Origin: Escherichia coli
Lineage (GTDB): Bacteria; Pseudomonadota; Gammaproteobacteria; Enterobacterales; Enterobacteriaceae
Assembly: GCA_902500005.1 (NCBI GenBank)
Contig: GCA_902500005.1_3678.1
Reading direction: 5' to 3' (one strand)
DNA length: 64,000 nt
Position numbers and translations under genes: made by a program. The notes under the pieces were generated by a model. It saw only the letters and a list, made by a program, of their open reading frames with translations, made no database searches and was not told the DNA's origin. This document shows, in pieces, positions 9,601 to 41,830 of this stretch (position 1 is the first letter of the stretch; each line of letters opens with the position of its first letter).

Positions 9601-10288
9601 CAAGATCGCACAAGAAATTTCGTCAAACAACTACGATGGCAACGGGTACCATAAATACGGTTGGTACATTAACAAGAACGGGCACGCCCAATTTATGGAT
9701 GTGTGGGTGAAAGGCAACATCAACGCCAGTTCTGGTAACTTCACAGGGGCAGTTAACGCCACCAGTGGTACCTTCCGTGGTGATGTTTATGCCAATAATG
9801 GTAGCTTTAGAGGCACCATAGATGCAACCGGAGGTACCTTCCGTGGTCGTGTAGAAGCTTCTGTTATCCGTGCTAACCAGTTCGAAGGTGCGATTGTTGC
9901 ACACAGGACTTACGGAGATTGTGCTCCAGTATATAACTCCCAGCAAAGGGTTTGCCGTTGGAGGTGGAGATACGTAGATAACGTTTCAGGTCAGGGTAAG
10001 AACGTAACATTCTTCTTTAAACTGAATGGTACTCTTGCCAGCTCCCAACTGAATGCATGGATAGCTGGTCATCAGATCCTTGCTGGCAAGAAGTATTTTA
10101 ACGACAACAACGGCATGTGTGCGGTAGGGATAACAGGTCTGGGTGAACAAACTATAGACATTGTTATCGAGATTTACACACCGTGGTCAACGTCGAGCGT
10201 GACAGGTGTCACAATCTCCTGTCCCACTGTGATCGTTAGTCGTTCTAACTCAAGCTTCCAGGGACCTTGGAACGAGTCTCACGACTAA
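6689..10288 (+). CDS. central tail fibre / host-specificity protein, lambda gpJ-like (1199 aa)
   Basis: Segments …APEAPVSVEVKQGYFAITLIPH…YYWYIRTTNAFGSSAFVE… and …KYVAGIQLGMEGSGGQ…FMVSANNFAVYNP… closely resemble lambda J FN3/C-terminal regions (from memory); internal coiled-coil repeats. Confidence 0.8.
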   Translation: MPIAMIDNIVASARSSSYDWNASKAALADSLNTVTTRTLDKIFEGNKSYRSQQDRQKLLRSSAAPCSVVYGKTRTSGLLAFLEQDSDRTLHCAIVLANHPLEGIEDILIDGNPISSYGDLVSWELHNDRKTSDPFMGTHCPSWSPDMIGRGISWLRASFRFDPNKFPFGLPNVTLVKVGKKCYDPRISKEVYTNNAALVILDYLRTYLKCPDETINWESFKEAANICDEAVKNADGTSERRYTINGEFDMDEAPASIMAEMLKACGADLSYVAGKYGLLVGAYYGPATMTLSEDCVCGEVKIYPEASFDKRSNTITGRFTSPTKGYSETDFPSVFVPEWIEKDGERKIIDIDYRFVTSPYQAQRVSAIFLRRARAGRIIEVTCNMRGFKFKPGRYVTMDLPSIGIVGQEMRVLEWEFTKKGGVKVKLRQDAKEWNDATGQLPDSGDVDIPISPSGVAQPQNFRYSVLQAGEVTHGVLAWDNVGTYAQNIVQVRKNGEIVWTAQTVEQFVKVEGLTKGSYTATVVATSYKGGVSPEAYCEFNIQAPEAPVSVEVKQGYFAITLIPHSRDLASVSTQYDFWTSGMTRLPDTSDATVTSKATRMGVGSTWTSEGLQNDKIYYWYIRTTNAFGSSAFVECAAHCYTSIEDLMPQIDAEFKKTETYKELTANLDNAVKEMDKNVGAVNDRVTSIFEELGDTIEGVVRETTEKFTGVNGEISALNSKLVAAQQSFDDKLAAESGRLGSLIETTNRSTVDLVNRKTQALSEQITATQGTLREELKNTESKLNSSIQETNKATTDLLNKTTEAIKQDLVAATGKITKLEDDVQKEVANLQASIQETNSTTVDLVNNTATAIRQELTSAKQEIVDEMGNIDELRATVSNTSKAVTTLDGKINAQWGAKIQVDSAGNKYVAGIQLGMEGSGGQVQSYFMVSANNFAVYNPGNGTATLAFAIKNNQAFLKDAFIENGTISSAKIAQEISSNNYDGNGYHKYGWYINKNGHAQFMDVWVKGNINASSGNFTGAVNATSGTFRGDVYANNGSFRGTIDATGGTFRGRVEASVIRANQFEGAIVAHRTYGDCAPVYNSQQRVCRWRWRYVDNVSGQGKNVTFFFKLNGTLASSQLNAWIAGHQILAGKKYFNDNNGMCAVGITGLGEQTIDIVIEIYTPWSTSSVTGVTISCPTVIVSRSNSSFQGPWNESHD

Positions 10289-10296
10289 CCTTTAAA

Positions 10297-10324
10297 GCCC
10301 CGCTTCGGCGGGGTTTATTTTTAT
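10297..10324 (+). terminator. rho-independent terminator
   Basis: gccccgcttcggcgggg hairpin + tttattttt. Confidence 0.55.
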
Positions 10325-10393
10325 GCTCAGATTGACTATTGTTACAAAATTTGGTAAAATACCTTGTAGAGATTTTCATACCGGAGGAGTGAC

Positions 10394-11884
10394 GTGGCTA
10401 AGTATGGATTGACAGAGGCTGGTTTCGTTATACCAACCCTAAATGACCTAATCGTTGAAACTAAGCAAAGCCTGATCCGTGCTTTTGGCGAAAACTTCAA
10501 CGTACAGAGTAACTCCGTTGCAGATAAGCTGACCACTATCTTCAACGAGCGAGAGTATCAACTTATTCTTATGGCAGCATCTGTATACGCATCACAGACG
10601 CTGTATGGGGCAGAAGGTATCTACCTAGATGAGCTTCTTGGAAGACAGGGTATTTACCGAAGAGGCCGTTCTAAATCATCAGGTACCTGCCAGTTGACAA
10701 TCAACACAACTGTGCCGTACAATATGATTTATGATTCCAAAACTTATACGCTGGACAGTGGCAACTTTGTTCTTAGCAACGATGTGCAAGTAGCAGGGAA
10801 TCTTATTGCTCACAGAATAAATGCTCCAGACCTAAGGATTGGGAAATACAACTTCCAAATTACCAACCAGACAGATGGAAGTATCAAAACAAAAAGCCTG
10901 GTTTTAACAGATAAATCTCTGGACTCTTCTGATTTGCCAAGCTTTTACGGAGAGATTAAGCAATTCATTGTCGATAATACAACCCTGTTGAACGACGATT
11001 TGATTCAGATCGATATGTTGACAGGAACGTTGTGGATAGGGTACAATTCGAATCTTGATCAAGTTGGACTTAACAGTAGGGTAGATTTCAGAGTATCCCC
11101 GATTGTAGGGGAAAGAACTATCACACTGGATGTTATCGCTAACGAGGCTGGTGAGCTGTCAAGAGAAGCAGAAACCGTGACAACAATGTCACCTACTCCT
11201 AGTGGATTTATCAAGCTTACCAACCGAGAAAGATTCAATGAGGGCAGGGATGTTGAGAAAGACTCAGAGTATCGCTTAAGAGCTTCCAGCACAAAACAGT
11301 TAACATCTAAGGCTACCCGTCCTGCAATCCTTAGCGCTGTAAGCGAGGTGAAAGGTGTTGAGAAAGTGAGAGTGTTCTCCAACAACACCGATAAAACTGA
11401 TGCTAAAGGTATACCTCCTTACAAGTTCCAAGTGGTTGTGTTTGGTGGTGCAACGGAAGACATTTGCCAAGCACTTTACCAAACTATAGCCTGTACGAAC
11501 AGGACTTATGGTAATATTTTCTACGATGTCACTACATCTGACGGTCAAACTGAAAGAATTTATTACTCCAAGGCAAACACCTACCGCCTAGATGTAAGAA
11601 TTACCTACTCCGGTGCTGCGCTTTCTACAACCGAAAAAGATGCCATTATAGAGGCTCTTTTGCAGGTTGTTAACGGACTGGATGTTGCAGATACGTTGTA
11701 TAATATCCAATTGGTAGGTGCTGCATCTGCTGCTGTGTCAATAGGCAGATTTAATAGGCTGGTAATTCAAGTTAAATCCGTAGGAGCTTCTGATGAAGCT
11801 TACACTACAAACGATATTGTTGCGAACATGACCGAGGTGTTTGACCTCGACGAAAGTAATATAACTTTCCAACAAACTATTTAA
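10394..11884 (+). CDS. tail/baseplate structural protein (496 aa)
   Basis: GTG start 5 nt after GGAGG; N-terminal region resembles baseplate-J-like proteins (weak, from memory). Confidence 0.45.
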   Translation: MAKYGLTEAGFVIPTLNDLIVETKQSLIRAFGENFNVQSNSVADKLTTIFNEREYQLILMAASVYASQTLYGAEGIYLDELLGRQGIYRRGRSKSSGTCQLTINTTVPYNMIYDSKTYTLDSGNFVLSNDVQVAGNLIAHRINAPDLRIGKYNFQITNQTDGSIKTKSLVLTDKSLDSSDLPSFYGEIKQFIVDNTTLLNDDLIQIDMLTGTLWIGYNSNLDQVGLNSRVDFRVSPIVGERTITLDVIANEAGELSREAETVTTMSPTPSGFIKLTNRERFNEGRDVEKDSEYRLRASSTKQLTSKATRPAILSAVSEVKGVEKVRVFSNNTDKTDAKGIPPYKFQVVVFGGATEDICQALYQTIACTNRTYGNIFYDVTTSDGQTERIYYSKANTYRLDVRITYSGAALSTTEKDAIIEALLQVVNGLDVADTLYNIQLVGAASAAVSIGRFNRLVIQVKSVGASDEAYTTNDIVANMTEVFDLDESNITFQQTI

Positions 11885-11895
11885 GGCGGCGAGAT

Positions 11896-12582
11896 ATGGC
11901 AGAGATTAAGTCGGATGTTAACCACATCCACACTCTGCCAGATTTTGTTCAGGGAGGTCTTGACTACCTGCCTGGAGATTTTCTGGCTGAGAAGGTTAAT
12001 TTAGTCACATTCTTAACCGTATACCTTAAAAGGTTGGAGGATGTTGATAAGATGCTGGTAGGTTTGGCTGAAGGAAGATTGCTTAACAATGCCAGCGGAA
12101 GATACCTTGACGAAGTTGGTAATCAACTTGGTATTCTTAGGAATGGACTTTCAGATGCTGATTTTCGTGCCACACTAATTATTCAGCAGGCCGCAGCATC
12201 AAGGGGCGGGACTCGCGAAGATGTCATCTCCACCTTGCGACAATTGTTCGGAAGAGACAATTTCGATACGTGGAAAGGAGACAACTTCAGGTTTGACATA
12301 AATATTAGAAAAACTTGCTTTGACATATTGCAGTCTATCGATCAGATCTTAGATATGCTACCATTGCCTTGTCATTTGCGTCTTACAGAATCGCAAGGGC
12401 AAGCTTTTGGTTTTGAAGGGGACTCTACAGCTCTTGGCTTCGGATCAGTATGGGAAGAAAACCAGTTTGGAGTTGGTGGGCTGGCTACTTTGCTGTATGT
12501 TCCTGACGTAAGACCTGATTGGGACACCACAACCATTTATTGTGAAAGTATTACAGTAAACGCAACTAGACAGGAGGGTTAA
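11896..12582 (+). CDS. tail structural protein (228 aa)
   Basis: ATG start; position between structural genes. Confidence 0.45.
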   Translation: MAEIKSDVNHIHTLPDFVQGGLDYLPGDFLAEKVNLVTFLTVYLKRLEDVDKMLVGLAEGRLLNNASGRYLDEVGNQLGILRNGLSDADFRATLIIQQAAASRGGTREDVISTLRQLFGRDNFDTWKGDNFRFDINIRKTCFDILQSIDQILDMLPLPCHLRLTESQGQAFGFEGDSTALGFGSVWEENQFGVGGLATLLYVPDVRPDWDTTTIYCESITVNATRQEG

Positions 12583-26142: not shown

Positions 26143-26303
26143 GACGATCTCCTCTGTTTGGTTGGTGAGAATTATATATAGATCTGGTGGTGGTGTCAAG
26201 CTTAATTTTAAGAGATCTGAGAGGGTATTTTATTCAGGAAGGCAATCGCACAGGGTGGAGAAATTTATGAAGGCACAGGCCTCGTTTGAGGCCTTAAATT
26301 CTA

Positions 26304-29222: not shown

Positions 29223-29486
29223 TCAGAAACCCTCTAAAAAGCTCTTGTAGAAAACAATCTCAGTATCCACACCAGTCACAATCTTGTCGTTCCTGATTTC
29301 ATCGGTAAGATAGGTGTCAAAACGCAGAACCTGTGTGGTGTTGTCACACATCCACTCAGCTGTGACCATTGCGAAAATCTTAGCATCTTCATTATCTGGT
29401 GTGAATGTTACCACCTCACCGCACTTAAACTTTTCGATAGGCTGAGTGTTAGCTTTCGGTTCTGCGATAGTGATTTTTGTGGTCAT
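29223..29486 (-). CDS. small paralog family member 3 (87 aa)
   Basis: …KCGEVVTF… / …VTGVDTEIVF… align with members 1 and 2. Confidence 0.5.
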   Translation of the reverse strand: MTTKITIAEPKANTQPIEKFKCGEVVTFTPDNEDAKIFAMVTAEWMCDNTTQVLRFDTYLTDEIRNDKIVTGVDTEIVFYKSFLEGF

Positions 29487-29749
29487 TATTCTCCTCCTTC
29501 TTTTGAATAGCTTGTCTCTCCAAGGATGGTAATTTTGGTGTCAAGCTCTGTAACTTTCATGTTTGGCGGCAGATCGTACAACTCATTATTTTCTAAATCG
29601 AACCCCCACACACAATGTTCTCCTGTTTTGACAATCATAACTATGTTTTGAATGCCGTCTCCGTCGCAACTTACCACGGTCCCACACGGAAAACTGTCTG
29701 CACGCTTTTTGTTCTTCACCTTAGAATTGAATACAATGCTGGTAGCCAT
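29486..29749 (-). CDS. small paralog family member 2 (87 aa)
   Basis: MAT…K.KK…GTVV…IVK…FDL…LP…VTELD..ITILGE shared with member 1. Confidence 0.5.
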   Translation of the reverse strand: MATSIVFNSKVKNKKRADSFPCGTVVSCDGDGIQNIVMIVKTGEHCVWGFDLENNELYDLPPNMKVTELDTKITILGETSYSKEGGE

Positions 29750-30012
29750 TATTGTTCCTCCACCATAACTTCGCCAAGAATTTCTATGCAGGCATCCATT
29801 TCTGTAACAACCAAACTGTGAGGTAGTTCTACAAACACCTTTCTGAACAGATCAAATACCCCAACATATATGTTTGCAGGATGTGATTTTACAACAAGTG
29901 CTGTATTCACATCCCCAAGTTCATCAACAAACATCACCACAGTGCCTGGAGCTACTGAGGACAGATACTTCTTAGTTTTACGGTTTGATGCAAATTTTAA
30001 CTCTGTTGCCAT
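29749..30012 (-). CDS. small paralog family member 1 (87 aa)
   Basis: ATG after GAGGAGG; same length and motifs as member 2. Confidence 0.5.
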   Translation of the reverse strand: MATELKFASNRKTKKYLSSVAPGTVVMFVDELGDVNTALVVKSHPANIYVGVFDLFRKVFVELPHSLVVTEMDACIEILGEVMVEEQ

Positions 30013-30027
30013 AAATAACCTCCTCTC

Positions 30028-31488
30028 TTACTTAGCGTACTCGATTAATTCCACAGTTTTCCCAAAGCTCGGGATATAATTTTTATTATACCCCTCAGTG
30101 AGGACCCATAGAGTATCGTACTTTTTCCACTTGTTGTCAACAACCTTTTGTTCAAAGTTATGCTCAAAGTATAGGTCGGTCAGGACGATGACATCTTTTG
30201 CATTAGGTATGTTGGCATCCAGATACTCGAACACGCAAGCAGCTGTTGTGCCCCATGTTGAGTGGACCTCATAGTTGATCATCTCATCTATGTTACCGCG
30301 AGTGTATACTTTAACCTCTCCAACCTCAGTTGACCAACAGAACATTGTAACCTTAAACTCTTTATACAGATTGCACAATCCGGTGATTTCATTGAACATT
30401 TTCTTTAAAGTTCTTTGAGAGATCGAGCCAGAAACGTCTAAAGCTACAACAATATCTATGGTGTTTTCCGGATTACGACCAGGAACAATAACGTGCTGGT
30501 TCTTGTTTATAGCCCCAACTTTTCGCATTGTGCTGGTCAAAGACCCAGATCGGCGACCAGGTTTTCTGTAGGTCAGTTCAGCCTTTCGTTTAGACAACAT
30601 GCGTTGCTTAATGATGTCTATATAGTTGATTACAGGCTTACCCCTGTTCTTGACAAACTCACGCACCGCCTCAGGGCAACGACCTCCGGAAGCTTGCATT
30701 GCTGCCTCCAGCATATCACCAGAGTCCTGCATGGCCTGATCTTTATCAGATTGACTGATTACAGGTTGTGGCTGATCATACCCCATAGCCTTTCCAAGAT
30801 TATCACTGGTGCCACCGTTCCCACTCATGTGATCATCGGTTTGTCGCTTATCACTTTGAGAGTTCTCACCTTTACCGTTCTTACTTTTACCGTTATTCTG
30901 ATCTCTTTGCTTATCAAGAACTGCATAAACGTTCTCAGCAATCCATCCATGAAACTTCATGTCGCAGTAGCAGCTGGCTAAGAAGCCAAAAGGCTTACCT
31001 TTCATGAACGTAGTGCTTTTCCCCTTCGGGAAGAAAACACAAGGAGGTTTGCTAAAGTCAACCACAAGGCCTGTGTTGATAACGTGATCACAAGCAATAT
31101 TGAACAGTTCCGGCTCAAAGCTTTTACCACGGACTAGGTGATCACAGATAATATGCCCCACCTCATGTGACAGAAGGAAGGCCACCTCTTTCACAGATTT
31201 TGGGGAATAGAAAACTTCAGCCATCTCAAACTGCTCGTCAGTTAGAGAAGCCTTAAGAATAGCCTTGCGCTCATCAGCCAATCCCATAATGAACTCAGGA
31301 CTGTAATAGATGCGTTTATGGTCGGTTGCCATGGTGGAGCACCATGTGTGGTTTTCTACGAACTGCAACCCTGACAGTAGTGTGCCATAAAACGGCAGCT
31401 TTTCAAGGAGATACATACGTGCAGCCTGCAACATTCTCAGGGCATCATCTTTTTGTGAGGCAATGATTTCTGAACTTCTGCTATCCAT
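30028..31488 (-). CDS. metallopeptidase-domain + von Willebrand A domain protein (DUF2201-like)
   Basis: HExxH motif (SHEVGHIICDH) in N-terminal half; vWA MIDAS motif (VVALDVSGS) in C-terminal half; ATG at 31488 after GGAG (track start is TTG). Confidence 0.65.
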   Translation of the reverse strand: MDSRSSEIIASQKDDALRMLQAARMYLLEKLPFYGTLLSGLQFVENHTWCSTMATDHKRIYYSPEFIMGLADERKAILKASLTDEQFEMAEVFYSPKSVKEVAFLLSHEVGHIICDHLVRGKSFEPELFNIACDHVINTGLVVDFSKPPCVFFPKGKSTTFMKGKPFGFLASCYCDMKFHGWIAENVYAVLDKQRDQNNGKSKNGKGENSQSDKRQTDDHMSGNGGTSDNLGKAMGYDQPQPVISQSDKDQAMQDSGDMLEAAMQASGGRCPEAVREFVKNRGKPVINYIDIIKQRMLSKRKAELTYRKPGRRSGSLTSTMRKVGAINKNQHVIVPGRNPENTIDIVVALDVSGSISQRTLKKMFNEITGLCNLYKEFKVTMFCWSTEVGEVKVYTRGNIDEMINYEVHSTWGTTAACVFEYLDANIPNAKDVIVLTDLYFEHNFEQKVVDNKWKKYDTLWVLTEGYNKNYIPSFGKTVELIEYAK

Positions 31489-31521
31489 TAAAACTCCAGA
31501 AGGGGCCAATGGCCCCTGTCA

Positions 31522-32562
31522 TTATTTAACGTGTTTGAAAATACCTGCCAACTCGGTCATTGTCATGCGGGTGGTCTTCATAAGATCTGTCATAGCTTTC
31601 TCCATAATTGGAGATACTACCATAAAGTTTCCTTTAGTGAAACCTTTATTCCAGTCGGTCACCAACAGGGGTTTAAGTCCAGCTCCAAGACGTTCACCAG
31701 TTAAAGCACAGCATTTGCGAATATACGAACTCTTAAATTGGCTGAACGACAGATCAACTTTCATACCTACATCGTAGAACGTTTGGCAATAGAAAGTGTA
31801 AGCTTTGGCAATCTCAACATCATCAGGTAGTGCAGGAACCTCTTCTGTAAGCTCCTCTTCGACCCCTTGAGTCTCTTTTTCCTCTTCATGCACCTGTTGC
31901 GTCATTTCTTCAATCTCTTCTGTGATAGGCTCGTTTACAATGTCGGAAATGTGCTTCTTGGGTGCACGATAAGTAACTTTAGACATCGGTAGCATATCTT
32001 CCTCCTCTTCTTCGTCAAAGAGTGCTAGTTTATCCTCTTCCGTTCCATATTGCAAGATGAAATCTTCAAAAGTATAATCACCTTTCAATTTCTCCATACG
32101 CTCTTCGCTCAGGTGGAGCATCATCTGCTGGACAATTTTTCGATCAGTTTCGTCTTTAATCAAGACTGCAGTCTTTTTATCTACCAGACAGTCCTTTAGA
32201 GAGTTGCATCTCAATCCCACCACACAACAGTTATCAACCGCATAAGGACCTTCATCATCTATCCGCTCCAGAGATGGGTAGAAAGGATTCCCCAGCCCGT
32301 TTTCATCTGTGTGCATGTCAAAAGGTATAAGGGTATAGTCGCATACTCCATCTCCTAAAAGTTTTTTACCAAATAGGAGGTATTCTTCCCATGACAGGTC
32401 GAACTCTATATCTCGTTTCCGTGCGTTATTCTGTTTGCGTCTATATTTTTTGAGCAAGCGCTCTAACTCTTCTGGTGTATAATATTTTTCAAGATTCATG
32501 AGTCGTCTCTCGTGCTCTGTAAGTGAAGAAATCGTATCAATTGTCTCAACAGATGTCAACAT
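31522..32562 (-). CDS. HNH-like (His-Me finger) domain protein with acidic linker (347 aa)
   Basis: …PSLERIDDEGPYAVDNCCVVGLRCNSLK resembles HNH endonuclease signature (from memory); poly-Glu linker; internal Met preceded by GAGGAGG. Confidence 0.45.
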   Translation of the reverse strand: MLTSVETIDTISSLTEHERRLMNLEKYYTPEELERLLKKYRRKQNNARKRDIEFDLSWEEYLLFGKKLLGDGVCDYTLIPFDMHTDENGLGNPFYPSLERIDDEGPYAVDNCCVVGLRCNSLKDCLVDKKTAVLIKDETDRKIVQQMMLHLSEERMEKLKGDYTFEDFILQYGTEEDKLALFDEEEEEDMLPMSKVTYRAPKKHISDIVNEPITEEIEEMTQQVHEEEKETQGVEEELTEEVPALPDDVEIAKAYTFYCQTFYDVGMKVDLSFSQFKSSYIRKCCALTGERLGAGLKPLLVTDWNKGFTKGNFMVVSPIMEKAMTDLMKTTRMTMTELAGIFKHVK

Positions 32563-32572
32563 CAAAAACGTG

Positions 32573-32601
32573 TTGACTTTACTCTAACTCCACAATATAG
32601 T
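32573..32601 (+). promoter_or_regulatory. sigma70-like promoter in divergent intergenic region
   Basis: TTGACT-17 nt-TATAGT, about 40 nt upstream of 32642 gene. Confidence 0.45.
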
Positions 32602-32641
32602 GCACCCATTCGAAAGAAAACTAACATAGGAGCACTTACTT

Positions 32642-33541
32642 ATGGCAAATCTTAACAGTTTTAGTACGCGGTGGAAACAGGACATAACAACCAATCTTTC
32701 AGCTGGGGACATCCTTTCTGCAATTTACGAGGCTTTAGATGATAAAGCTACTTCAAAAGCGGTTTGTACCAACCCATTAATTCCTATAGTGATGAAGGTT
32801 ATTGAGCGTAGATTGGTATCTGGGTCTGATAAGTGGACATATTTAGATAATGAAGGACACACCTATTCCAATGGGTATGTCGATATAAAAGTAGAATACG
32901 CGGTATCATACCGCCGGAGCGGTTCTGTAACTTTCAACTTCTCTGGAGGTTTTCGATCTCTGGCTACCTCACCTTTTGTTTCCTCAGAGGAGAAGTATGA
33001 GCTGCCATTTCTTTGGATGATGGCTAACGCGACAGGAAAAACCCCCGTTAGCATCCGAGTAAAATACAACTACAACGGATCTAGTAAGATCTATGCCGAA
33101 AGTGTCTCAGCAAGTTTTTATTTTGTGATGGGGGATGGAATCCTTAAACATATAAAGATGTGCGATATGCATGATGTTATAAATGAAGTGACTGATAAGA
33201 ATGTTCTAGTGAAAGACCTCAACAATTTTTATACACCCGGAGACTATTACGTCAGCCGTCCACTGTGCATCTTTAATGCCGCACACCCTCTAGGTGAGTA
33301 TTTGATCGCCAATAGCGATATTGCCAATAACCGCTTCGAGGTAGCAAGAGTTCAGAATGAGGTATTGACATCTTGCAAGAGCGGTGATAAGTTTACCGAA
33401 GAAGAGATGGGTGTTTTAGAAATGATGGGATATAAGTGTAGCCTTTGGGTAGATGAGGTGTTTAATGATTGCATCTATGGACAGGATATTTACCCATTAA
33501 AGAAGTATACTGATACAAGTTTAATTTATGCGAGGGTTTGA
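32642..33541 (+). CDS. hypothetical protein (299 aa)
   Basis: ATG with TAGGAG RBS; first gene of rightward block. Confidence 0.5.
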   Translation: MANLNSFSTRWKQDITTNLSAGDILSAIYEALDDKATSKAVCTNPLIPIVMKVIERRLVSGSDKWTYLDNEGHTYSNGYVDIKVEYAVSYRRSGSVTFNFSGGFRSLATSPFVSSEEKYELPFLWMMANATGKTPVSIRVKYNYNGSSKIYAESVSASFYFVMGDGILKHIKMCDMHDVINEVTDKNVLVKDLNNFYTPGDYYVSRPLCIFNAAHPLGEYLIANSDIANNRFEVARVQNEVLTSCKSGDKFTEEEMGVLEMMGYKCSLWVDEVFNDCIYGQDIYPLKKYTDTSLIYARV

Positions 33542-33543
33542 CT

Positions 33544-33816
33544 ATGATGAAGGCATGTGGTAATGTATATTACGTCGGTGAACATGTTCAGGCAGACAGT
33601 GTGTGGAAATCTATTAAGTCCACCACTGACGATGCCTTTCTGAGTGGACTATGTTTCCCCAATCCGGGAGACATCCTCCCTCATCCTGGAGATTTTGTTG
33701 TCAACAAGATGGACGGTTATACCGTGTGCCTGATGGTTGAAAAAATCTTTTTAGACACTAGACACAATCACCGTCTTGTGTTAAAATTTCAAGAATGTAA
33801 AATGACAATTGCCTAA
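33544..33816 (+). CDS. hypothetical protein (90 aa)
   Basis: ATG 7 nt after GAGGG (track start 33538 is TTG). Confidence 0.4.
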   Translation: MMKACGNVYYVGEHVQADSVWKSIKSTTDDAFLSGLCFPNPGDILPHPGDFVVNKMDGYTVCLMVEKIFLDTRHNHRLVLKFQECKMTIA

Positions 33817-33829
33817 GGAGACCTTACCG

Positions 33830-34186
33830 ATGTCTAAAGTTACTTATCGTGCAGCTATTTACTGCAATGAACACCCAATCAATAATGATGGTCACTGCCT
33901 TTTTAAAGAAAATCAATTGGGCTGTATTGTCCTCCCTGATGAAGGGGAAGGTTATCTTATTGCATTGACAGGGTTTGAACCTGAGGCTCTGGAAGCCAAT
34001 CTGGACTACCTGGTAGAAGAGGGTGCTGCAGACCTGGTTGCCAATGGCCTCTCCATAAGCCTTGACGAAGTAGAGCGCTTCATGGGCAATTACCGTGTAG
34101 TGCGTGAGTTTACTATCGAGGTGGAAACTCCGGAGTGGGGTAGCCATGAAACTAATGCCGAAGAAAAAGAAGAGGAGGTAGAATAA
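33830..34186 (+). CDS. acidic hypothetical protein (118 aa)
   Basis: ATG 8 nt after AAGGAG (track start 33809 is TTG); acidic C-terminus. Confidence 0.45.
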   Translation: MSKVTYRAAIYCNEHPINNDGHCLFKENQLGCIVLPDEGEGYLIALTGFEPEALEANLDYLVEEGAADLVANGLSISLDEVERFMGNYRVVREFTIEVETPEWGSHETNAEEKEEEVE

Positions 34187-34443
34187 TGAAAGTGCAGATC
34201 TTGACTAATGCCGAGAAGATGTTTATTGAAGATACACCTTTTGAAGCTGGTGAGCTACAGTTCATTTATTTTGTTGACTTAGATAAGGTGTTCCCTGCAC
34301 TGAATCTTGGTCTGGATGAAGTTCCTCATAAGGTTTTGTGCCAAGTTGTTCGTGCATTAGCGGCAGATGGGGAGTTCCACACCCTTGAAGATGTCCAGAC
34401 CTACGGGTATCTTGAACTACAACGAGAAGAAGAGGTGGACTGA
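34186..34443 (+). CDS. acidic hypothetical protein (85 aa)
   Basis: ATG overlapping upstream stop. Confidence 0.4.
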   Translation: MKVQILTNAEKMFIEDTPFEAGELQFIYFVDLDKVFPALNLGLDEVPHKVLCQVVRALAADGEFHTLEDVQTYGYLELQREEEVD

Positions 34444-34445
34444 TA

Positions 34446-34826
34446 ATGGCCCAGTGGAAGACAACAGTTGACCTTCATGATCAGTGGTTAGGACGCATCG
34501 CTGAAGACGGGAAGCTAGTGGAGTGGGACAATAAGCATGTTAGCGAGTTGGCAAGTATTGTAGCTGGCAAGTTACGCTCCAAGTTCCCTGAACAACTGGA
34601 TCCTGATAGTTCAAAGTTCGATCCTGAGTTAGAGGATGTTGTATACTACTTCGACACCGTTGATGACTACGACGCGTGGTTTGCAGCACGGGAGCTTTAC
34701 CCACAAGGCTCTGCTATGCGCCAGATGGAAGAAGATTATCCTCCGTGTGAGCAATTCAATAGTGCAATGACTTGCCTCTATGATTGGGCAGATAAGAACC
34801 TTGTCTGGATTCGGACTGCATTTTAG
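34446..34826 (+). CDS. hypothetical protein (126 aa)
   Basis: ATG start immediately after upstream stop. Confidence 0.45.
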   Translation: MAQWKTTVDLHDQWLGRIAEDGKLVEWDNKHVSELASIVAGKLRSKFPEQLDPDSSKFDPELEDVVYYFDTVDDYDAWFAARELYPQGSAMRQMEEDYPPCEQFNSAMTCLYDWADKNLVWIRTAF

Positions 34827-34870
34827 TGGGCAGGAATGGCGGCAAGGATGCTGCTTAAGGAGTAGTAGAG

Positions 34871-35140
34871 ATGTTATACCAGCAATATGAACTTCGTGCA
34901 GAAAAAGAGTTAAATTTTGACAAAGATATTCACAGATATTATTATGGGAAAGTTAGAGGGCAAGCAAGAAAGTGTACTCCAACACTCTTTTATGCCAGCA
35001 GACGACTAGCGCCAGAAGAGGCAACAGCAGAAAGGGTTGCGTACAACTGGAGAGTCACGTATGATATTGACAGATTCGATGTGATATCTGTTTTGGAAAA
35101 CTTTGAAAACACTTACACACAAGTAGAGGACTTTTACTAA
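34871..35140 (+). CDS. hypothetical protein (89 aa)
   Basis: ATG with GGAG RBS. Confidence 0.4.
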   Translation: MLYQQYELRAEKELNFDKDIHRYYYGKVRGQARKCTPTLFYASRRLAPEEATAERVAYNWRVTYDIDRFDVISVLENFENTYTQVEDFY

Positions 35141-36324
35141 TGTCAAGAAACGTATTCGAAAGTGGTCAAATCACTGTCCGTGAGTTGCCAGCTATTATTC
35201 AGTTTGCCCAACGTCATAGCCGATCTGTCCTAATTTTGGGACCAATGGGTGTGGGTAAAAGCCAGGTGATGAAGCAGATCGCTGATAATATGTTCGGTGA
35301 GCGAGATGACAACCTTGTTGACGTGCGACTGTCAGATAAAGATCCTGCCGACTTATCTGGGCTACCTATCCCTGTAGAAGCGGATGGAACTACACGTACA
35401 GTGTTTGCAATTCCAGAATTTTGGCCTGCGGATCCTGACTGGAGCGGAATTATCTTTCTGGATGAGCTCACTCATGCAGATAACTACCTGCAAAAGGTTG
35501 CAATGCAAATTATGCTTGACCACAAGTGCGGCACCTATGCATTCCCTAAGGGTTCTGTTTTTGTGGCTGCGGGTAACCGTTCTACAGATGGTGCGGTTCT
35601 TTCGGCGCTCGAAGCCCCTCTGGCTAACCGTTTTATCATTGTAGAGGTTACAAGCAATGCAGAGGTGTTTATTGAGGACTACGCATTCCTTAATGGGGTG
35701 CATTCCTCTGTAATTGGATATTTGAAAAGAGTTCCATCAGCTATTGATAATTATGAGGCTATGGCTGAGATTAATTGTCCATCTTTTGCCACACCACGAT
35801 CTTGGGTTGCTGCATCTGACATCTTGCACGATTTTGACAGCGGTATTATTTCTGACGCTATGGCCCGTGTTCTTCTGCAAGGTGCTATTGGTCACACTGC
35901 AGCGGTAGAGATCTGGACATACCACACCAAGAAACGCAATTTACCGGAAATCGGTCGGATTATGGCAGGTGGCTGCAAAGAATACGTAGGTCCTAAGCAG
36001 CCAGACATTTTGTGGATTCTTGGATCTGAAGGTTGTATCGCTATTCGTAATATGATGGAAAATGCAAGTATCTCAGACGAAGATCTTGTCAGCTGCGTGG
36101 CAAACTTCCTCGATTTCCTTTGGGAAAACTTCAAGGACGAGAACCGAGATTTTGTATTCTCAGTCTTTATGGCGATGATGAAACCTAATGCCTTAGGAAA
36201 TGCCTTGCTTATCGGTAAAGGGCGTGACAAGATTGTTGCTCAGCTGATCAAAGCATACCCAAACCTGATGAAGATTGTAAAAGAGTTTGGTGAAGAGTTT
36301 AGCGCCATTTTGGCTAAAGCTTAA
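35140..36324 (+). CDS. AAA+ ATPase, MoxR/CbbQ (AAA_5) type
   Basis: Walker A ILGPMGVGKSQ; Walker B IIFLDELTHA; sensor-1 VFVAAGNRS. Confidence 0.75.
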   Translation: MSRNVFESGQITVRELPAIIQFAQRHSRSVLILGPMGVGKSQVMKQIADNMFGERDDNLVDVRLSDKDPADLSGLPIPVEADGTTRTVFAIPEFWPADPDWSGIIFLDELTHADNYLQKVAMQIMLDHKCGTYAFPKGSVFVAAGNRSTDGAVLSALEAPLANRFIIVEVTSNAEVFIEDYAFLNGVHSSVIGYLKRVPSAIDNYEAMAEINCPSFATPRSWVAASDILHDFDSGIISDAMARVLLQGAIGHTAAVEIWTYHTKKRNLPEIGRIMAGGCKEYVGPKQPDILWILGSEGCIAIRNMMENASISDEDLVSCVANFLDFLWENFKDENRDFVFSVFMAMMKPNALGNALLIGKGRDKIVAQLIKAYPNLMKIVKEFGEEFSAILAKA

Positions 36325-36725: not shown

Positions 36726-36754
36726 CTCCCCCGCTTCGGCGGGGATTTTCTATT
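36726..36754 (+). terminator. rho-independent terminator
   Basis: cccccgcttcggcgggg hairpin + attttctattt. Confidence 0.5.
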
Positions 36755-39254: not shown

Positions 39255-40460
39255 ATGATTTTCATCTACGAACATTTCAAAACCCGTAAAGAAGCACGAG
39301 ACCGCCGTGCAGAACTTGAGAAGAAGGGTTTCACATGTGCCATTGAGAAAGGCGACACAACCTGGACACTGGCAGTTGGTGCCCCAGAGTTGTTCGATCC
39401 TGACCGTGACAGCGTCTGCTACACCCGTGAGGATTTTGAAACCCGCGAAGAGGCCCGTTTATTTCGATACGGTCTGGAAGATAACGGTAAGTACGCTATG
39501 ATCTTAGATTTAGGCGAAGGTTCCGTTAAACGTTGGGGCGTGGTATACCCACTGTGTGTTGTTCACGGTGTGGGGTTCACTGGGGTAGCAATCAAGTCAG
39601 AAGAACCTTTAGTAGAAGTCAAAGATCCGGTGCTGGAGGTGGTGAGCAGTGTGTCTCAGCAACAGACTCGAAGCATCGAGCCTTTGGTAGTTATTTGTGG
39701 GGAACTCCTCCAGATCACCTGCAACGAAGGCATTTTTGAAATTCGCCGCAGCGAAAGTGAGGAAGTTTACCAGAAAGTCTTCGACCATATCTCTGTTCAG
39801 GAATATGACGAGGCAATTGGTGAAATCCTTGTCTGGTTGGAACGCAAGAATGAGTTCACCACACTTGCAGACAACCTGATCATGAAGGATGGTAAGCTCT
39901 ACTACTACGGTGTAGAGATGCGATCCACCATTGCAAAGAAAATTGAGAAAGATTATGCAGACGGAACACTGGATGACCGCTATGTGAAATTCCTAGTTCG
40001 CCTGCTACGCAATCCTTCTGCAAAATCTGTAAACATGCTCTACGATTTTATGCAGGCCAACGATATCCAGATTGCAGAAGATGGTCGAATCATTTGCTAC
40101 AAAGGGGTTCAGTTTAACGGCAGCAAGTGGGTGGATTGGCACAGTGGTAAAGTTCCACAATACCAGGGTGCTTTTGTATCCATGCCTCGTAACTTTGTAG
40201 AGGATGATCCGGAAGCTGCGTGCTCCTATGGCTTACACTGCGCCAGCAAAGAGTATGCAAAGAGCTACGGCACTGTAATGACTGTTATGGTTGATCCTGC
40301 AGATGTGGTTAGTGTGCCATACCAACACAATAGCGCTAAGTGCCGTGCATGCCGCTATGAGATTGTGGTAGCTCCGGAAGCACGCAAAGATGGAGACCCT
40401 ATTGAATATGTAGTTGATCGTGACGGTAACACTATCGACATTCTTTACGAGGAGGCGTAA
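39255..40460 (+). CDS. hypothetical protein with two N-terminal repeated small domains (401 aa)
   Basis: ATG after AAGGAGACC; residues 1-40 and ~55-95 are internal repeats (…TRKEARDRRAELEKKGFT… / …TREEARLFRYGLEDNGKY…). Confidence 0.5.
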   Translation: MIFIYEHFKTRKEARDRRAELEKKGFTCAIEKGDTTWTLAVGAPELFDPDRDSVCYTREDFETREEARLFRYGLEDNGKYAMILDLGEGSVKRWGVVYPLCVVHGVGFTGVAIKSEEPLVEVKDPVLEVVSSVSQQQTRSIEPLVVICGELLQITCNEGIFEIRRSESEEVYQKVFDHISVQEYDEAIGEILVWLERKNEFTTLADNLIMKDGKLYYYGVEMRSTIAKKIEKDYADGTLDDRYVKFLVRLLRNPSAKSVNMLYDFMQANDIQIAEDGRIICYKGVQFNGSKWVDWHSGKVPQYQGAFVSMPRNFVEDDPEAACSYGLHCASKEYAKSYGTVMTVMVDPADVVSVPYQHNSAKCRACRYEIVVAPEARKDGDPIEYVVDRDGNTIDILYEEA

Positions 40461-41830
40461 TGGAAAAAGGGCAGTATGATGTAGGCACAGATGCTGCCCT
40501 CGTTGCAATCATGAGCGGTGAGAATGTCTTCGTTTCAGGACCCGCAGGTTGTGGGAAGACGTACCTCATCAACATGATCCAGTCAATGTATGGAGACTCT
40601 TGCATAACGGTTGCCCCGACAGGGGTTGCCGCTTTAAACGTTAATGGAGCAACAGCACACCGAACCTTCGATCTTGCAGCAGGTGTGAGCATGGAGTCAG
40701 ACTGGACTGCAATAAGGGCAAAAACAGCAAAGCCTTTGAAAAGCAAGGCATTTACCATCCTAATTATCGATGAAATCTCTATGATCCGTGCTGATAAGTT
40801 TATAGAGATGGATAGGAAACTCCGCTTCCTTCGAAAAAATGACAAACCTTTCGGAGGCATACAGGTCATATTGTTTGGCGATTTTTACCAGGCACCTCCT
40901 GTTGTCTCTTCTATGGAGAAGGAAGCCTACTTCAACTTCTACCATACGGATCTGTGTTGCTATACCGAATCTTGGAAAGAGCTTGACCTCCACAACATAG
41001 CCCTAATAGATCAGTTCCGACAGGAGTCTATTCGATTTGCCACAATGCTCAACTGTGTTCGTGAAGGTCGCCGCATAAAAGAGGTTGTAGCAGAACTTAA
41101 TGCTCGCTGTTACAAAGGTGGTGTACCAACAGATGCTCTCACAATTTGCGCCACCAACAAACAAGCAGAGGAGGTGAACAGAAGGTTCTATGATGCCATC
41201 AACGCCCCAGAGAAGGTATACACTGGTGAAATGAAGGGTAAGTTTCCCTCCACCCTGCCAGTTGAGCAGGAGATGAAGTTGAAAATTGGCATGAAAGTTA
41301 TGATAACCGCCAACGATGTTGACCCGACGCACAAAGTACCTTATTATGTTAACGGAACACGTGCCACAATTGTTAAATTTAAGAACAAGGCAGTGGTGGT
41401 AGAGCTTGAAGATGGAACTCAGGTTGACATAGAGCAGAGGTTGTGGGAGAATAACGAGTATAAGCCATCTCAGAGATACAACATTGCAGAAAGGAAGATG
41501 GAGAAGTTTATAGAGAGGGTAGTGATTGGGTCATACAAGCAACTTCCTCTGAAATCTGGGTATGCCGTAACATCTCATAAAAGTCAAGGACTTACGCTAG
41601 ATTGTTACAACCTAGACCTTGGAAAGAACGGAGCTTTCTCTCCTGGGATGACGTATGTTGCTTTGAGTCGAGTTAAGACAATACAAGGAATAAACTTGTT
41701 GCGTCCACTAAGAGAAGTTGACATTATTGTTGACCCGCGAGTCGTAGAGTTTTACAATACAACATTCCCTGACTTAGACAAAATTGTCAGGAAAGATTTT
41801 GAAACCAGAGCAGAAGAGGGGGACGTATGA
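40460..41830 (+). CDS. SF1B DNA helicase, Dda/RecD/Pif1-like
   Basis: Walker A GPAGCGKTY; motif II IIDEISMI; motif V VTSHKSQGLTLD. Confidence 0.8.
   Translation: MEKGQYDVGTDAALVAIMSGENVFVSGPAGCGKTYLINMIQSMYGDSCITVAPTGVAALNVNGATAHRTFDLAAGVSMESDWTAIRAKTAKPLKSKAFTILIIDEISMIRADKFIEMDRKLRFLRKNDKPFGGIQVILFGDFYQAPPVVSSMEKEAYFNFYHTDLCCYTESWKELDLHNIALIDQFRQESIRFATMLNCVREGRRIKEVVAELNARCYKGGVPTDALTICATNKQAEEVNRRFYDAINAPEKVYTGEMKGKFPSTLPVEQEMKLKIGMKVMITANDVDPTHKVPYYVNGTRATIVKFKNKAVVVELEDGTQVDIEQRLWENNEYKPSQRYNIAERKMEKFIERVVIGSYKQLPLKSGYAVTSHKSQGLTLDCYNLDLGKNGAFSPGMTYVALSRVKTIQGINLLRPLREVDIIVDPRVVEFYNTTFPDLDKIVRKDFETRAEEGDV

Follow-up and report, generated by a model that had tools for sequence, protein, structure and literature searches.

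Gene layout of the locus

The DNA analysed here, which we call the window, is a stretch of 64,000 nucleotides from an Escherichia coli assembly (GCA_902500005.1, contig GCA_902500005.1_3678.1). Its source is a Vequintavirus, an rV5-like E. coli phage with 99% identity to many GenBank phages, and the same stretch is found in more than 100 GenBank phage records at 90-99% identity. Two of its genes, labelled in GenBank as 'putative metallopeptidase / VWA-like domain protein' and 'MoxR ATPase', are the subject of this analysis. The ORF list and the GenBank records agree with the preliminary description that both reading frames are real and lie at 30028-31488 (minus strand) and 35140-36324 (plus strand). 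The two genes and the features around them are as follows.

30028-31488, minus strand: vWA-peptidase gene, 486 aa, two domains (ORF, Pfam)
30424-30438, minus strand: DVSGS codons (D351-x-S353-x-S355), core of the MIDAS metal site (conservation)
31153-31167, minus strand: HEVGH codons (H108-E109-x-x-H112), putative zinc-binding catalytic motif (conservation)
31501-31517, minus strand: GC-rich hairpin GGGGCC-ATT-GGCCCC (terminator-like scan, sequence)
31522-32499, minus strand: Srd-like 'anti-sigma factor' gene (PHROG matches to sigma70 decoy and Srd anti-sigma factor)
32531-32601, both strands: divergent, back-to-back sigma70-like promoters (consensus scan, sequence)
34446-35140, plus strand: two small genes directly 5' of the ATPase gene, 34446-34826 (126 aa) and 34871-35140 (89 aa) (ORFs)
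35140-36324, plus strand: MoxR-class AAA+ ATPase gene, 394 aa (ORF, homologues, fold)
35239-35262, plus strand: Walker A codons GPMGVGKS, aa 34-41 (motif position, conservation)
35449-35466, plus strand: Walker B codons IIFLDE, aa 104-109 (conservation)
36729-36744, plus strand: strong intrinsic-terminator-like hairpin, CCCCGCTTCGGCGGGG followed by a T-rich tail (terminator-like scan)

The pair is transcribed divergently across a gap of 3651 bp that holds seven genes, of which 31522-32499 is on the minus strand and the six in 32642-35140 are on the plus strand, and GC skew changes sign at the strand switch, at about 32.5 kb. Here a minus-strand promoter (TTGACA-17-TACGAT, 32559-32531) stands back-to-back with a plus-strand promoter (TTGACT-17-TATAGT, 32573-32601), and an inverted repeat at 32555-32577 has their -35 boxes as its arms. 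Both are consensus matches only, in a region with 34 promoter-like sites against a shuffle mean of 28.6, and it is their position that suggests promoter function. The leftward operon begins with the Srd-like gene, which adjoins the vWA-peptidase gene on its upstream side. The hairpin between these two genes has a weak minus-strand T tract and holds the ribosome-binding site of the vWA-peptidase gene, and may act as an attenuator or RNA-stabilising element. On the other side of the switch, the stop of the 89 aa gene overlaps the ATPase start (ATGA), and the hairpin at 36729-36744 would, from its sequence, close the rightward operon that contains the ATPase gene. The neighbours of the pair in the window include the Srd-like, rIIA and rIIB genes.

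Domain composition and linkage of the two proteins

The vWA-peptidase reading frame, counted from an ATG with GGAG five bases upstream, matches two Pfam families above their gathering scores, DUF2201_N (about aa 1-335; E 4e-28) and the DUF2201 VWA-like domain (about aa 340-486; E 6e-11). A putative zincin-like metallopeptidase makes up the N-terminal part, with its HEVGH motif in a predicted helix (99-118). Among 23 close homologues H108, E109 and H112 do not vary, and across 29 homologues they are conserved to 90% or more; H117, R120, N130, D134 and N138 of this domain are conserved as well. The C-terminal vWA domain carries a complete MIDAS motif (D351, S353, S355, T414 and D438) that is invariant in 29/29 aligned homologues, down to 19% identity. 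Its profile matches integrin I domains at the DVSGS motif, and its structural model matches integrin I domains, the NorD vWA domain, BchD and the Midasin MIDAS domain. The families, folds and conserved residues thus agree with the vWA partner carrying an N-terminal HExxH domain that was originally described.

The ATPase consists of a core (about aa 1-265) and a helical C-terminal extension. Because its direct Pfam match to AAA_5 is below threshold (E 0.0075; 16.7 bits against a cut-off of 22), we assign it to the AAA_5/MoxR class by transitive homology and fold. Homologues at about 33% identity carry AAA_3/AAA_5 and some distant ones match bpMoxR, the profile matches Midasin (E 2e-10), and the best Foldseek matches of the AF2 model (pLDDT 86.7) are NorQ, CbbQ2, cso-CbbQ and the MoxR protein CHU_0153. 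The earlier designation as an AAA_5 (MoxR/CbbQ-like) ATPase therefore holds for the class, while a direct AAA_5 match does not. Across 50 homologues, Walker A residues G37, G39, K40 and S41 do not vary, and the homologue alignment shows the same for Walker B D108 and E109, sensor 1 N146, R147, the arginine-finger candidate R164, and R220.

We observe that, in loci with enough flanking DNA, nearly every copy of either gene has the other within 10 kb. Anchoring on the vWA gene, the ATPase gene lies within 10 kb in 76/80 IMG/VR loci, with three of the four misses at contig ends, and is present in 76/77 loci with enough flanking sequence. Anchoring on the ATPase gene, the vWA gene lies within 10 kb in 70/80 loci; all ten misses have less than 1.5 kb of downstream sequence, and the partner is found in 70/70 loci with enough flank. 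Gene order across these IMG/VR loci is constant, with the ATPase always upstream of the vWA gene, and the pairwise identities of the two proteins correlate (r = 0.97, 129 loci). The partnership first proposed for the pair is thus matched by a clear co-evolutionary association.

The pair is widespread and already described (N4 gp24/gp25; Iyer et al. 2021). It is adjacent in loci L002-L005 and L007 and in N4, and non-adjacent layouts on one strand are common outside the rV5-related clade. In the split layout, 19/20 loci hold both genes (the exception is L016), at identities down to 39% for the vWA protein and 43% for the ATPase, and the MIDAS and HExxH residues are invariant within this clade. 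The preliminary description was right to see a recurrent phage cassette that is split here, but the split is not unusual, being the fixed layout of the whole rV5-related clade. Every divergent-clade locus has the Srd-like gene immediately upstream of the vWA gene; none was detected in those adjacent-layout loci that were checked.

Phenotypes of the orthologues in phage Bas54

Functional data come from a single preprint, a HIDEN-SEQ study of Escherichia phage MaxBurger (Bas54) (bioRxiv 10.1101/2025.11.20.689424). Bas54 belongs to the same genus and has the same gene layout, and nothing of substance differs, the window representing another Vequintavirus isolate. Its ATPase orthologue, bas54_0063, is a 100% identical protein, and its vWA-peptidase orthologue, bas54_0055, is 98.1% identical, with nine substitutions. 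On K-12, both genes are near-saturated by transposons, at 94% of TA sites (60/64 in bas54_0063 and 81/86 in bas54_0055), and the portal, capsid, scaffold, sheath and tube genes tolerate zero insertions (bioRxiv 10.1101/2025.11.20.689424).

The supplementary sheet for the CFE311 run is headed CFE303, but its command line refers to the 311 sample. In this run, ATPase mutants disappear (log2FC -7.23, q < 1e-5), while mutants in the vWA-peptidase gene fall 4.6-fold (log2FC -2.20, q 0.009) (bioRxiv 10.1101/2025.11.20.689424). The vWA-peptidase phenotype is much the weaker of the two, which counts against reading the pair as a counter-defence module. The Srd-like gene is non-essential and not depleted in CFE311.

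Clean deletion of bas54_0063 makes the phage sensitive to cloned DS-28, which consists of two genes, for a hypothetical protein and a HEPN family nuclease. Enabling growth on a DS-28-carrying host is the demonstrated role of the identical ATPase. The second anti-DS-28 gene, according to the authors, is bas54_0140, which has a 99 aa product and lies outside the window, and not the vWA protein; of the pair, only the ATPase deletion was tested against DS-28, and the vWA-peptidase is not discussed as a partner (bioRxiv 10.1101/2025.11.20.689424). The view of this cassette as functionally uncharacterised is accordingly partly outdated.

A candidate MoxR-vWA module and its alternatives

Cellular MoxR-vWA systems (NorQ-NorD, CbbQ-CbbO, RavA-ViaA, CobS-CobT, BchI-BchD and Midasin) combine the same ATPase fold class with a vWA/MIDAS-fold partner. 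By analogy, they probably share a working principle with the phage pair, in which the vWA protein engages the hexameric ATPase, which pulls or twists it. The families differ, and no NCBIfam or equivalog match was found for the phage pair. The phage partner has a zincin-like domain where NorD and CbbO have their N-terminal regions, and the cellular systems serve in metal insertion or enzyme reactivation, not in protein cleavage.

Among phages, N4 gp24 (ATPase) and gp25 (vWFA) of Schitoviridae belong to the same two families in the same order. They are distant (27% identity, E 3e-28, for the ATPase and 22%, E 2e-20, for the vWA-peptidase) but keep the HExxH (HELWH), the MIDAS motif (DTSGS) and Walker B. 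The N4 genes are neighbours on one strand with 167 bp between them, whereas those of the window are divergent and 3.6 kb apart. The N4 proteins are shorter (352 and 380 aa against 394 and 486 aa); in the window the helical region at the ATPase C terminus is longer, and a disordered insert (about aa 200-228) lies in the peptidase domain. N4 gp24 and gp25 are core genes of N4-like phages. Group 2.2 jumbo phages encode a MoxR AAA+-vWA pair with an N-terminal metallopeptidase, with architecture and pairing as in the window (Iyer, Anantharaman, Krishnan, Burroughs, Aravind, Viruses 2021), and tblastn with the window proteins matches jumbo phages such as PBECO4, K64-1, PA5oct and XaC1.

On balance, we think that the conserved pair probably forms an early accessory module for ATP-driven remodelling, likely proteolytic, in counter-defence. 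The two proteins would be the halves of one MoxR-vWA machine, the same cassette as N4 gp24/gp25 and the jumbo-phage pair, which an inversion in the rV5-related lineage may have placed into two divergent operons. These operons appear to fire from the back-to-back promoters within a host-takeover region marked by the Srd-like gene and nearby rIIA/rIIB; early timing is suggested by consensus promoter matches barely enriched over shuffles. The ATPase would assemble into a hexameric ring, as in NorQ-NorD, CbbQ-CbbO and Midasin, on which the vWA domain would dock while its MIDAS metal site holds a target protein by an acidic residue. The bound complex would then be pulled or twisted through ATP hydrolysis, and the fused HExxH domain would cut the exposed target. 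What the data show are the two genes with their domains, motifs and fold class, their linkage across phages, their dispensability on K-12 and the requirement for the ATPase against DS-28; the physical complex, the proteolysis, the target's identity and the early timing are inferred. The module is accessory and not part of core replication or assembly.

A rather doubtful, though possible, alternative is that the pair is uncoupled in rV5-like phages, with the ATPase countering DS-28 alone or with another partner such as bas54_0140, and the vWA-peptidase serving a separate host-takeover job. The very unequal CFE311 effects point this way, as do the authors' choice of the ATPase and bas54_0140 as the DS-28 genes, the separate divergent operons with a hairpin preceding the vWA gene, and the tie between the Srd-like and vWA genes in the split clade only. 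However, all split-layout loci but one retain both genes, the MIDAS and HExxH residues are invariant there, and the vWA-peptidase is itself significantly depleted in the same host. In the NorQ, CbbQ or RavA systems, moreover, no MoxR ATPase of this fold class is known to work without its vWA partner, which argues against uncoupling.

For jumbo phages, Iyer et al. 2021 proposed virion assembly or processing, by analogy with p618/p892, a MoxR-vWA pair needed for tail development in Acidianus two-tailed virus. N4-like phages share 14 core genes that include gp24/gp25, and in roseophages the two lie close to a second structural module; both points would fit an assembly or maturation chaperone with a processing protease, and a dedicated prohead protease leaves room for further processing. 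Such a role is nonetheless improbable here: the Bas54 genes tolerate insertions on K-12 where structural genes do not, which instead points to a dispensable module relevant on particular hosts, the window genes lie among host-takeover genes behind sigma70-like promoters and far from the structural module, and N4 gp24/gp25 are middle rather than late genes. Less credible still, and in our view very unlikely, is a role like that of NorQD, CobST, BchID and CbbQO, with the pair loading a metal cofactor into some phage or host enzyme, or activating it; the target might be an enzyme of nucleotide metabolism. The nearest structural relatives are indeed metal-insertion or enzyme-activating MoxR-vWA pairs, and adjacent-layout pairs occur near thymidylate synthase, 5'-3' exonuclease or dCTP deaminase genes; yet the conserved HExxH domain is without counterpart in NorD, CbbO and CobT, the equivalog search was negative, the window neighbours include no metabolic genes, and the phenotype follows host defence content rather than nutrition.

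The bacterial vWA-MoxR ternary conflict systems are also built on MoxR and vWA proteins, the latter in some cases with a fused peptidase, and act in host-virus conflict (Kaur, Burroughs, Iyer, Aravind, eLife 2020). Those systems are host defences with a third component (VMAP, FtsH or beta-propeller) and effector domains, whereas the module in the window is on the phage side, with neither a third component nor a PADLOC match seen for it. Since N4-like phages have the pair among their core genes, and it is also common in marine and jumbo phages, its role probably extends beyond countering a single rare E. coli system. The 126 aa and 89 aa genes beside the ATPase are candidate members of the module; both are non-essential and not depleted in CFE311 by HIDEN-SEQ, and most divergent-clade loci have the 126 aa protein, at 27-38% identity, still next to the ATPase.

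The locus and its transcription signals

Both genes of the preliminary description are present in the window, divergently encoded and 3651 bp apart. The 6.3 kb stretch that holds them shows 90-99% identity to 122 phage records in GenBank. With few exceptions, these are rV5-like Vequintavirus coliphages, including rV5_ev146, Murica, LL12, and several BASEL phages. These records label the two products 'putative metallopeptidase / VWA-like domain containing protein' and 'MoxR ATPase'. Between the two genes lie one minus-strand gene (31522-32499), which is Srd-like, and six plus-strand genes (32642-35140).

Genes and transcription signals of the locus
30028-31488, minus strand: vWA-peptidase gene, 486 aa from an ATG with GGAG five bases upstream
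31501-31517, minus strand: GC-rich hairpin immediately before the vWA-peptidase gene
32559-32531, minus strand: sigma70-like promoter from a consensus scan, TTGACA-17-TACGAT
32573-32601, plus strand: sigma70-like promoter from a consensus scan, TTGACT-17-TATAGT
35140-36324, plus strand: ATPase gene, 394 aa
36729-36744, plus strand: strong terminator-like hairpin, after the ATPase gene and one small gene

The strand switch falls where the GC skew changes sign and where the two sigma70-like promoters stand back to back. Because the promoter scan as a whole barely exceeds its shuffled control (34 sites against 28.6 ± 4.6), it is their position that makes these two plausible as real promoters. Their -35 boxes form an 8 bp inverted repeat at 32555-32577 (GTCAACAT ... 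GTGTTGAC), which could be a shared operator in addition to the two promoters. The hairpin at 36729-36744 would end the rightward operon carrying the ATPase. A near-consensus promoter (TTGACA-17-TATTAT, 11 of 12; 34917-34945, plus strand) lies within the 89 aa ORF that immediately precedes the ATPase gene and could give this gene a separate transcript. A perfect sigma70 consensus (TTGACA-17-TATAAT, 12 of 12) is found at 26171-26199 on the minus strand, inside the leftward block of small genes.

Several neighboring annotations deserve comment. Just downstream of the vWA-peptidase gene, two adjacent 87 aa genes (29486-30012, minus strand) are paralogous (39% identity, E 1.5e-12), and a third 87 aa gene at 29223-29486 has no detectable similarity to this pair; all three are coupled through overlapping ATGA stop-start codons. 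The 299 aa product of 32642-33541 is called 'putative alpha 1-3 fucosyltransferase' in GenBank, a label that we judge unreliable, as no Pfam or NCBIfam match backs it; the protein's sole match is to PHROG phrog_12338, a family of unknown function. Among the records matching the locus, sixteen named 'Campylobacter phage' (including search matches H12, H23, H86, and H87; GenBank MG0656xx; host Campylobacter jejuni) are about 99% identical here to rV5-like coliphages, and they probably carry the wrong host or name, or represent contaminant phages.

A divergent MoxR-class ATPase and a putative metallopeptidase-vWA protein

Direct family searches say little about the ATPase. Its match to Pfam AAA_5 is sub-threshold (E 0.0075, 16.7 bits, against a cut-off of 22), there is no direct Pfam match to AAA_3, and none of 30 ATPases of the rV5 clade matches either family at E <= 0.001. 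NCBIfam matches are weak and confined to the P-loop, and a single-sequence search of the PDB returned only Walker A matches, to Clp and p97. Because these direct searches yielded sub-threshold, P-loop matches, the class of the protein is settled through its homologues, its alignment profile, and its structural model. Full-length homologues of about 360 aa (31-36% identity over roughly 85% of the query, E about 1e-44) carry PF07726 and PF07728 (AAA_3 and AAA_5), some also PF20030 (bpMoxR). In the ATPase alignment, AAA_5 and AAA_3 are matched by 20 of the 50 members, all distant ones (best E 2e-9), and the alignment profile matches Midasin AAA domains (E 2e-10). The ATPase has Walker A GPMGVGKS (34-41), Walker B IIFLDE (104-109), and a candidate arginine finger, R164; invariant across the 50 sequences are Walker A G37, G39, K40, and S41, Walker B D108 and E109, sensor 1 N146, and R147, R164, and R220.

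In the model of the ATPase (pLDDT 86.7), helix 2 is followed by a beta-hairpin at 75-90, which separates strand 2 from the Walker B strand, and the sensor 1 strand is preceded by short strands at 129-134. From the secondary-structure string, we read these as a probable helix-2 insert and pre-sensor-1 hairpin, respectively. The best Foldseek matches of the model in the PDB are NorQ, alone and in NorQ-NorD complexes, CbbQ2 (6l1q), cso-CbbQ (5c3c), and the MoxR protein CHU_0153 (2r44). We conclude that the protein is a divergent MoxR-class AAA+ ATPase with an extra helical C-terminal region, for which a hexameric ring and activity are predicted. The AAA_5 assignment of the preliminary description thus fails as a direct Pfam match and stands, as membership in the MoxR class, through homologues, profile, motifs, and fold.

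Both domains proposed for the partner have profile support. DUF2201 ('VWA-like domain') matches above its gathering score (E 6e-11), the protein has the Rossmann-like alpha/beta vWA fold, and the MIDAS residues (DxSxS...T...D; D351, S353, S355, T414, and D438) are invariant in an alignment of 29 homologues with identities down to 19%. The MIDAS site of CbbQ-CbbO and Midasin binds an acidic target residue. The N-terminal domain matches DUF2201_N ('putative metallopeptidase domain') at E 4e-28, with 99 bits against a cut-off of 23, and carries the expected HExxH motif as HEVGH (108-112) in a long helix. Here H108, E109, and H112 are invariant in a closer subset of 23 sequences and at least 90% conserved in the 29; H117, R120, N130, D134, and N138 are also conserved. 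As the N-terminal domain had no structural match in the lists returned and no sequence relative in the PDB, its assignment as a putative zincin-like metallopeptidase is based on the Pfam match and on conservation of the helix bearing HExxH, rather than on a confirmed zincin fold. Proteins of this two-domain family are very numerous: a search of 1.84 billion proteins clustered at 50% identity gives 27,174 cluster representatives at E <= 0.001, of which 7,410 reach E <= 1e-30. We found no experiments on DUF2201_N family members in the literature.

PHROG phrog_1314 and several RefSeq records (N4 gp25, which occupies 2665-3807 of the fetched locus L169, Murica NC_041871, PBECO4, and others) call the vWA-peptidase an 'HNH endonuclease'. 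Domain searches found no HNH domain in the vWA-peptidase, so the label is unreliable and looks like a propagated mis-annotation.

A known phage cassette with a lineage-wide split

The two proteins belong to the phage cassette typified by N4 gp24 (the ATPase, 9938-10996) and gp25 (11164-12306), which BLASTP relates to the window proteins at 27% (E 3e-28) and 22% (E 2e-20) identity. The N4 pair keeps HELWH, DTSGS, and a Walker B LLFLDE, and its genes are adjacent, unlike the split pair of the window. The window proteins match PHROG families phrog_1297 and phrog_1314, and tblastn with both finds matches in N4-like podoviruses, PA5oct, jumbo phages of the PBECO4 and K64-1 type, and many Vibrio and roseobacter phages. 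In N4, gp24 and gp25 are middle genes, and both count among the 14 core genes of N4-like phages. The CRISPRi-ART paper limited its use of EdH4 and N4 to knockdowns of capsid and rII genes and gives no data on this pair, and a literature search for rV5 phages together with MoxR found no papers.

The preliminary description likened the pair to CbbQ/CbbO, NorQ/NorD, and CobS/CobT. The likeness extends to the fold class; we reject membership in any of the three, as neither protein has an NCBIfam equivalog match to them beyond weak P-loop matches, and the window partner has a peptidase-like domain in place of the N-terminal regions of NorD, CbbO, and CobT. In NorQ-NorD, a finger of the vWA domain enters the ring pore and a C-terminal contact is made, and ATP hydrolysis twists and stretches the NorD linker. 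We also rejected a phage-borne defense system, because the phenotype is one of counter-defense and PADLOC returned no match for the vWA-peptidase and only P-loop-level matches (E > 0.002) for the ATPase.

Co-occurrence across phages, the comparative check proposed at the outset, strongly supports the pairing. Outside the family, the nearest homologues are on large phage-like contigs (fetched loci L002-L005), where the ATPase gene is directly followed by a DUF2201_N + DUF2201 gene; the two genes are also adjacent in L007 (ATPase identity 35%), and in L006 (42%) they share a strand with four small genes between them. We searched IMG/VR with profiles of both proteins, taking 80 vWA-anchored and 80 ATPase-anchored loci and a partner window of 10 kb. 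An ATPase gene accompanies 76/80 vWA-anchored loci, the misses being three loci at a contig end and L016, and a vWA gene accompanies 70/80 ATPase-anchored loci, where all ten misses have less than 1.5 kb of downstream sequence. Where the flank is adequate, the partner is thus present in 76/77 and 70/70 loci. Gene order is fixed, with the ATPase upstream of the vWA gene in every pair and not one case of convergent or reversed order. The gap is 300 bp or less in 66/70 of the ATPase-anchored pairs; the vWA-anchored pairs are more varied.

Layout of the 76 vWA-anchored pairs
Same strand, gap of 300 bp or less: 21/76
Same strand, gap of 0.3-2 kb: 14/76
Same strand, gap above 2 kb: 22/76
Divergent, gap of 3.4-5.1 kb: 19/76

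In the window the genes are neither adjacent nor in a single operon, lying 3651 bp apart on opposite strands, an arrangement that the preliminary description called unusual. It is divergent and split as described, and it is shared by 19 rV5-related loci. The divergent loci are exactly the rV5 relatives (vWA identity of at least 39%), and all of them have the Srd-like gene directly upstream of the vWA gene, so the split is an old, fixed rearrangement of one lineage and not peculiar to this genome. No Srd-like gene was detected in the adjacent-layout loci checked. L016 (IMGVR_UViG_3300045988_163358), which has the Srd-like gene, is the only vWA-anchored locus that lacks an ATPase even though its upstream flank covers the full 10 kb; its ATPase may lie further away or have been lost. 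Across 129 non-redundant loci, pairwise identity in one protein is correlated with that in the other (r = 0.97), which we do not count as evidence of interaction because any co-inherited genes would give such a mirror-tree correlation.

Proposed counter-defense and competing readings

A 2025 preprint, HIDEN-SEQ, mapped transposon insertions across phage Bas54 (10.1101/2025.11.20.689424), which locus tags and coordinates identify as Escherichia phage MaxBurger. The window ATPase is 100% identical to bas54_0063, and the vWA-peptidase is 98.1% identical to bas54_0055. Both genes are non-essential on K-12, with 60/64 TA sites hit in the ATPase gene and 81/86 in the vWA-peptidase gene (10.1101/2025.11.20.689424). 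In the 311 sample, taken from a sheet headed CFE303 whose command line names strain 311, insertions in the ATPase gene are lost (log2FC -7.23, q < 1e-5; mean counts 148.7 to 0) and those in the vWA-peptidase gene are depleted (log2FC -2.20, q 0.009; 219.7 to 47.2) (10.1101/2025.11.20.689424). The seven intervening genes are non-essential on K-12 and unaffected in the same comparison (10.1101/2025.11.20.689424). A clean deletion of the ATPase sensitized Bas54 to DS-28 cloned from strain CFE311, as did deletion of bas54_0140 (10.1101/2025.11.20.689424), which encodes 99 aa and lies outside the window. DS-28, from the DefensePredictor study, consists of a hypothetical protein and a HEPN family nuclease. 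The preprint neither treats the vWA-peptidase as a partner of the ATPase nor deletes it (10.1101/2025.11.20.689424). The cassette is recurrent, as the preliminary description had it, and no longer wholly uncharacterized in function, since the identical ATPase is needed against DS-28.

The sheet in question, Data S6 of Extended Data Table 8, is headed 'resampling_K-12_vs_CFE303' and holds the command line and data files of sample 311. The retrieved passages of the sheet that follows it give the same numbers, and the CFE303 table may have been overwritten.

Fold class, motifs, and gene linkage jointly point to a MoxR-vWA machine. In the explanation that we find best, and to which we lean with modest confidence, a target protein would be joined to the ATPase ring by the vWA domain and cut by the fused HExxH domain, and the output in rV5-like phages would be relief from host immunity, an effect demonstrated for the ATPase against DS-28. 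We infer both the complex and the proteolysis. Three points weigh against this explanation: the ATPase shows a much stronger phenotype than the vWA-peptidase, one preprint is the source of the functional data, and so widely conserved a pair probably has a broader target than a single rare system of E. coli. A functional uncoupling of the two proteins in the split lineage would be consistent with the difference in phenotype and with the placement in separate operons. However, every split-layout locus except L016 (19/20) keeps both genes and their catalytic residues, and depletion of the vWA-peptidase is also significant in the host where the ATPase is depleted; we regard uncoupling as rather unlikely.

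Taking a pair of Acidianus two-tailed virus as the analogue, Iyer et al. 2021 suggested that the cassette acts in virion assembly and processing. An assembly chaperone-protease sits poorly with the near-saturating insertion in both genes, where structural genes tolerate none, and with their early, host-takeover gene context, which makes this role improbable for the pair. Metal insertion or enzyme activation would suit the structural relatives of the proteins. It fits neither the defense-dependent phenotype nor the conservation of a peptidase-like domain, and we give this reading very little credence.

Returning to the MoxR-vWA protease, we tentatively suggest, as a possibility short of an expectation, that the pair is an ATP-driven, MIDAS-targeted protease that serves as a general phage counter-defense, removing or pre-empting abortive-infection effectors such as the HEPN system DS-28. 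If so, this would explain its core status in N4-like phages and its frequency in marine and jumbo phages. More speculatively, the MoxR-vWA machine could process a small phage protein, for example bas54_0140, into an active inhibitor.

Overall, this work reads a known cassette correctly and is not a discovery. Both the literature and GenBank annotation already contained the cassette with its domain architecture and pairing, and the phenotype of the identical ATPase has been published. What we add is that the anti-DS-28 ATPase of Bas54 is a member of the gp24/gp25 cassette, that its conserved partner is the metallopeptidase-vWA gene 3.6 kb away across the strand switch, that this partner is also depleted in the same host, and that the split is a lineage-wide layout tied to the Srd-like gene. 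The gp24/gp25-type pair is among the few genes conserved across N4-like phages and recurs in thousands of phage genomes, and the Bas54 result is the first phenotype for its ATPase. An ATP-driven protease acting against host immunity would be a new working mode for MoxR-vWA systems and a new type of phage counter-defense; among such machines, it would be the first with demonstrated protease activity and the first to serve the virus in its contest with host immunity. It could also bear on the choice of therapeutic rV5-like phages for clinical E. coli strains.

The Bas54 data single out one further gene of this region. The DNA helicase bas54_0068, whose orthologue occupies 40460-41830 of the window and which is absent from the preprint's text discussion, is a third conditionally needed gene here, being dispensable on K-12 (66/73 TA sites hit) and strongly depleted in the 311 sample (log2FC -6.32, q < 1e-5).
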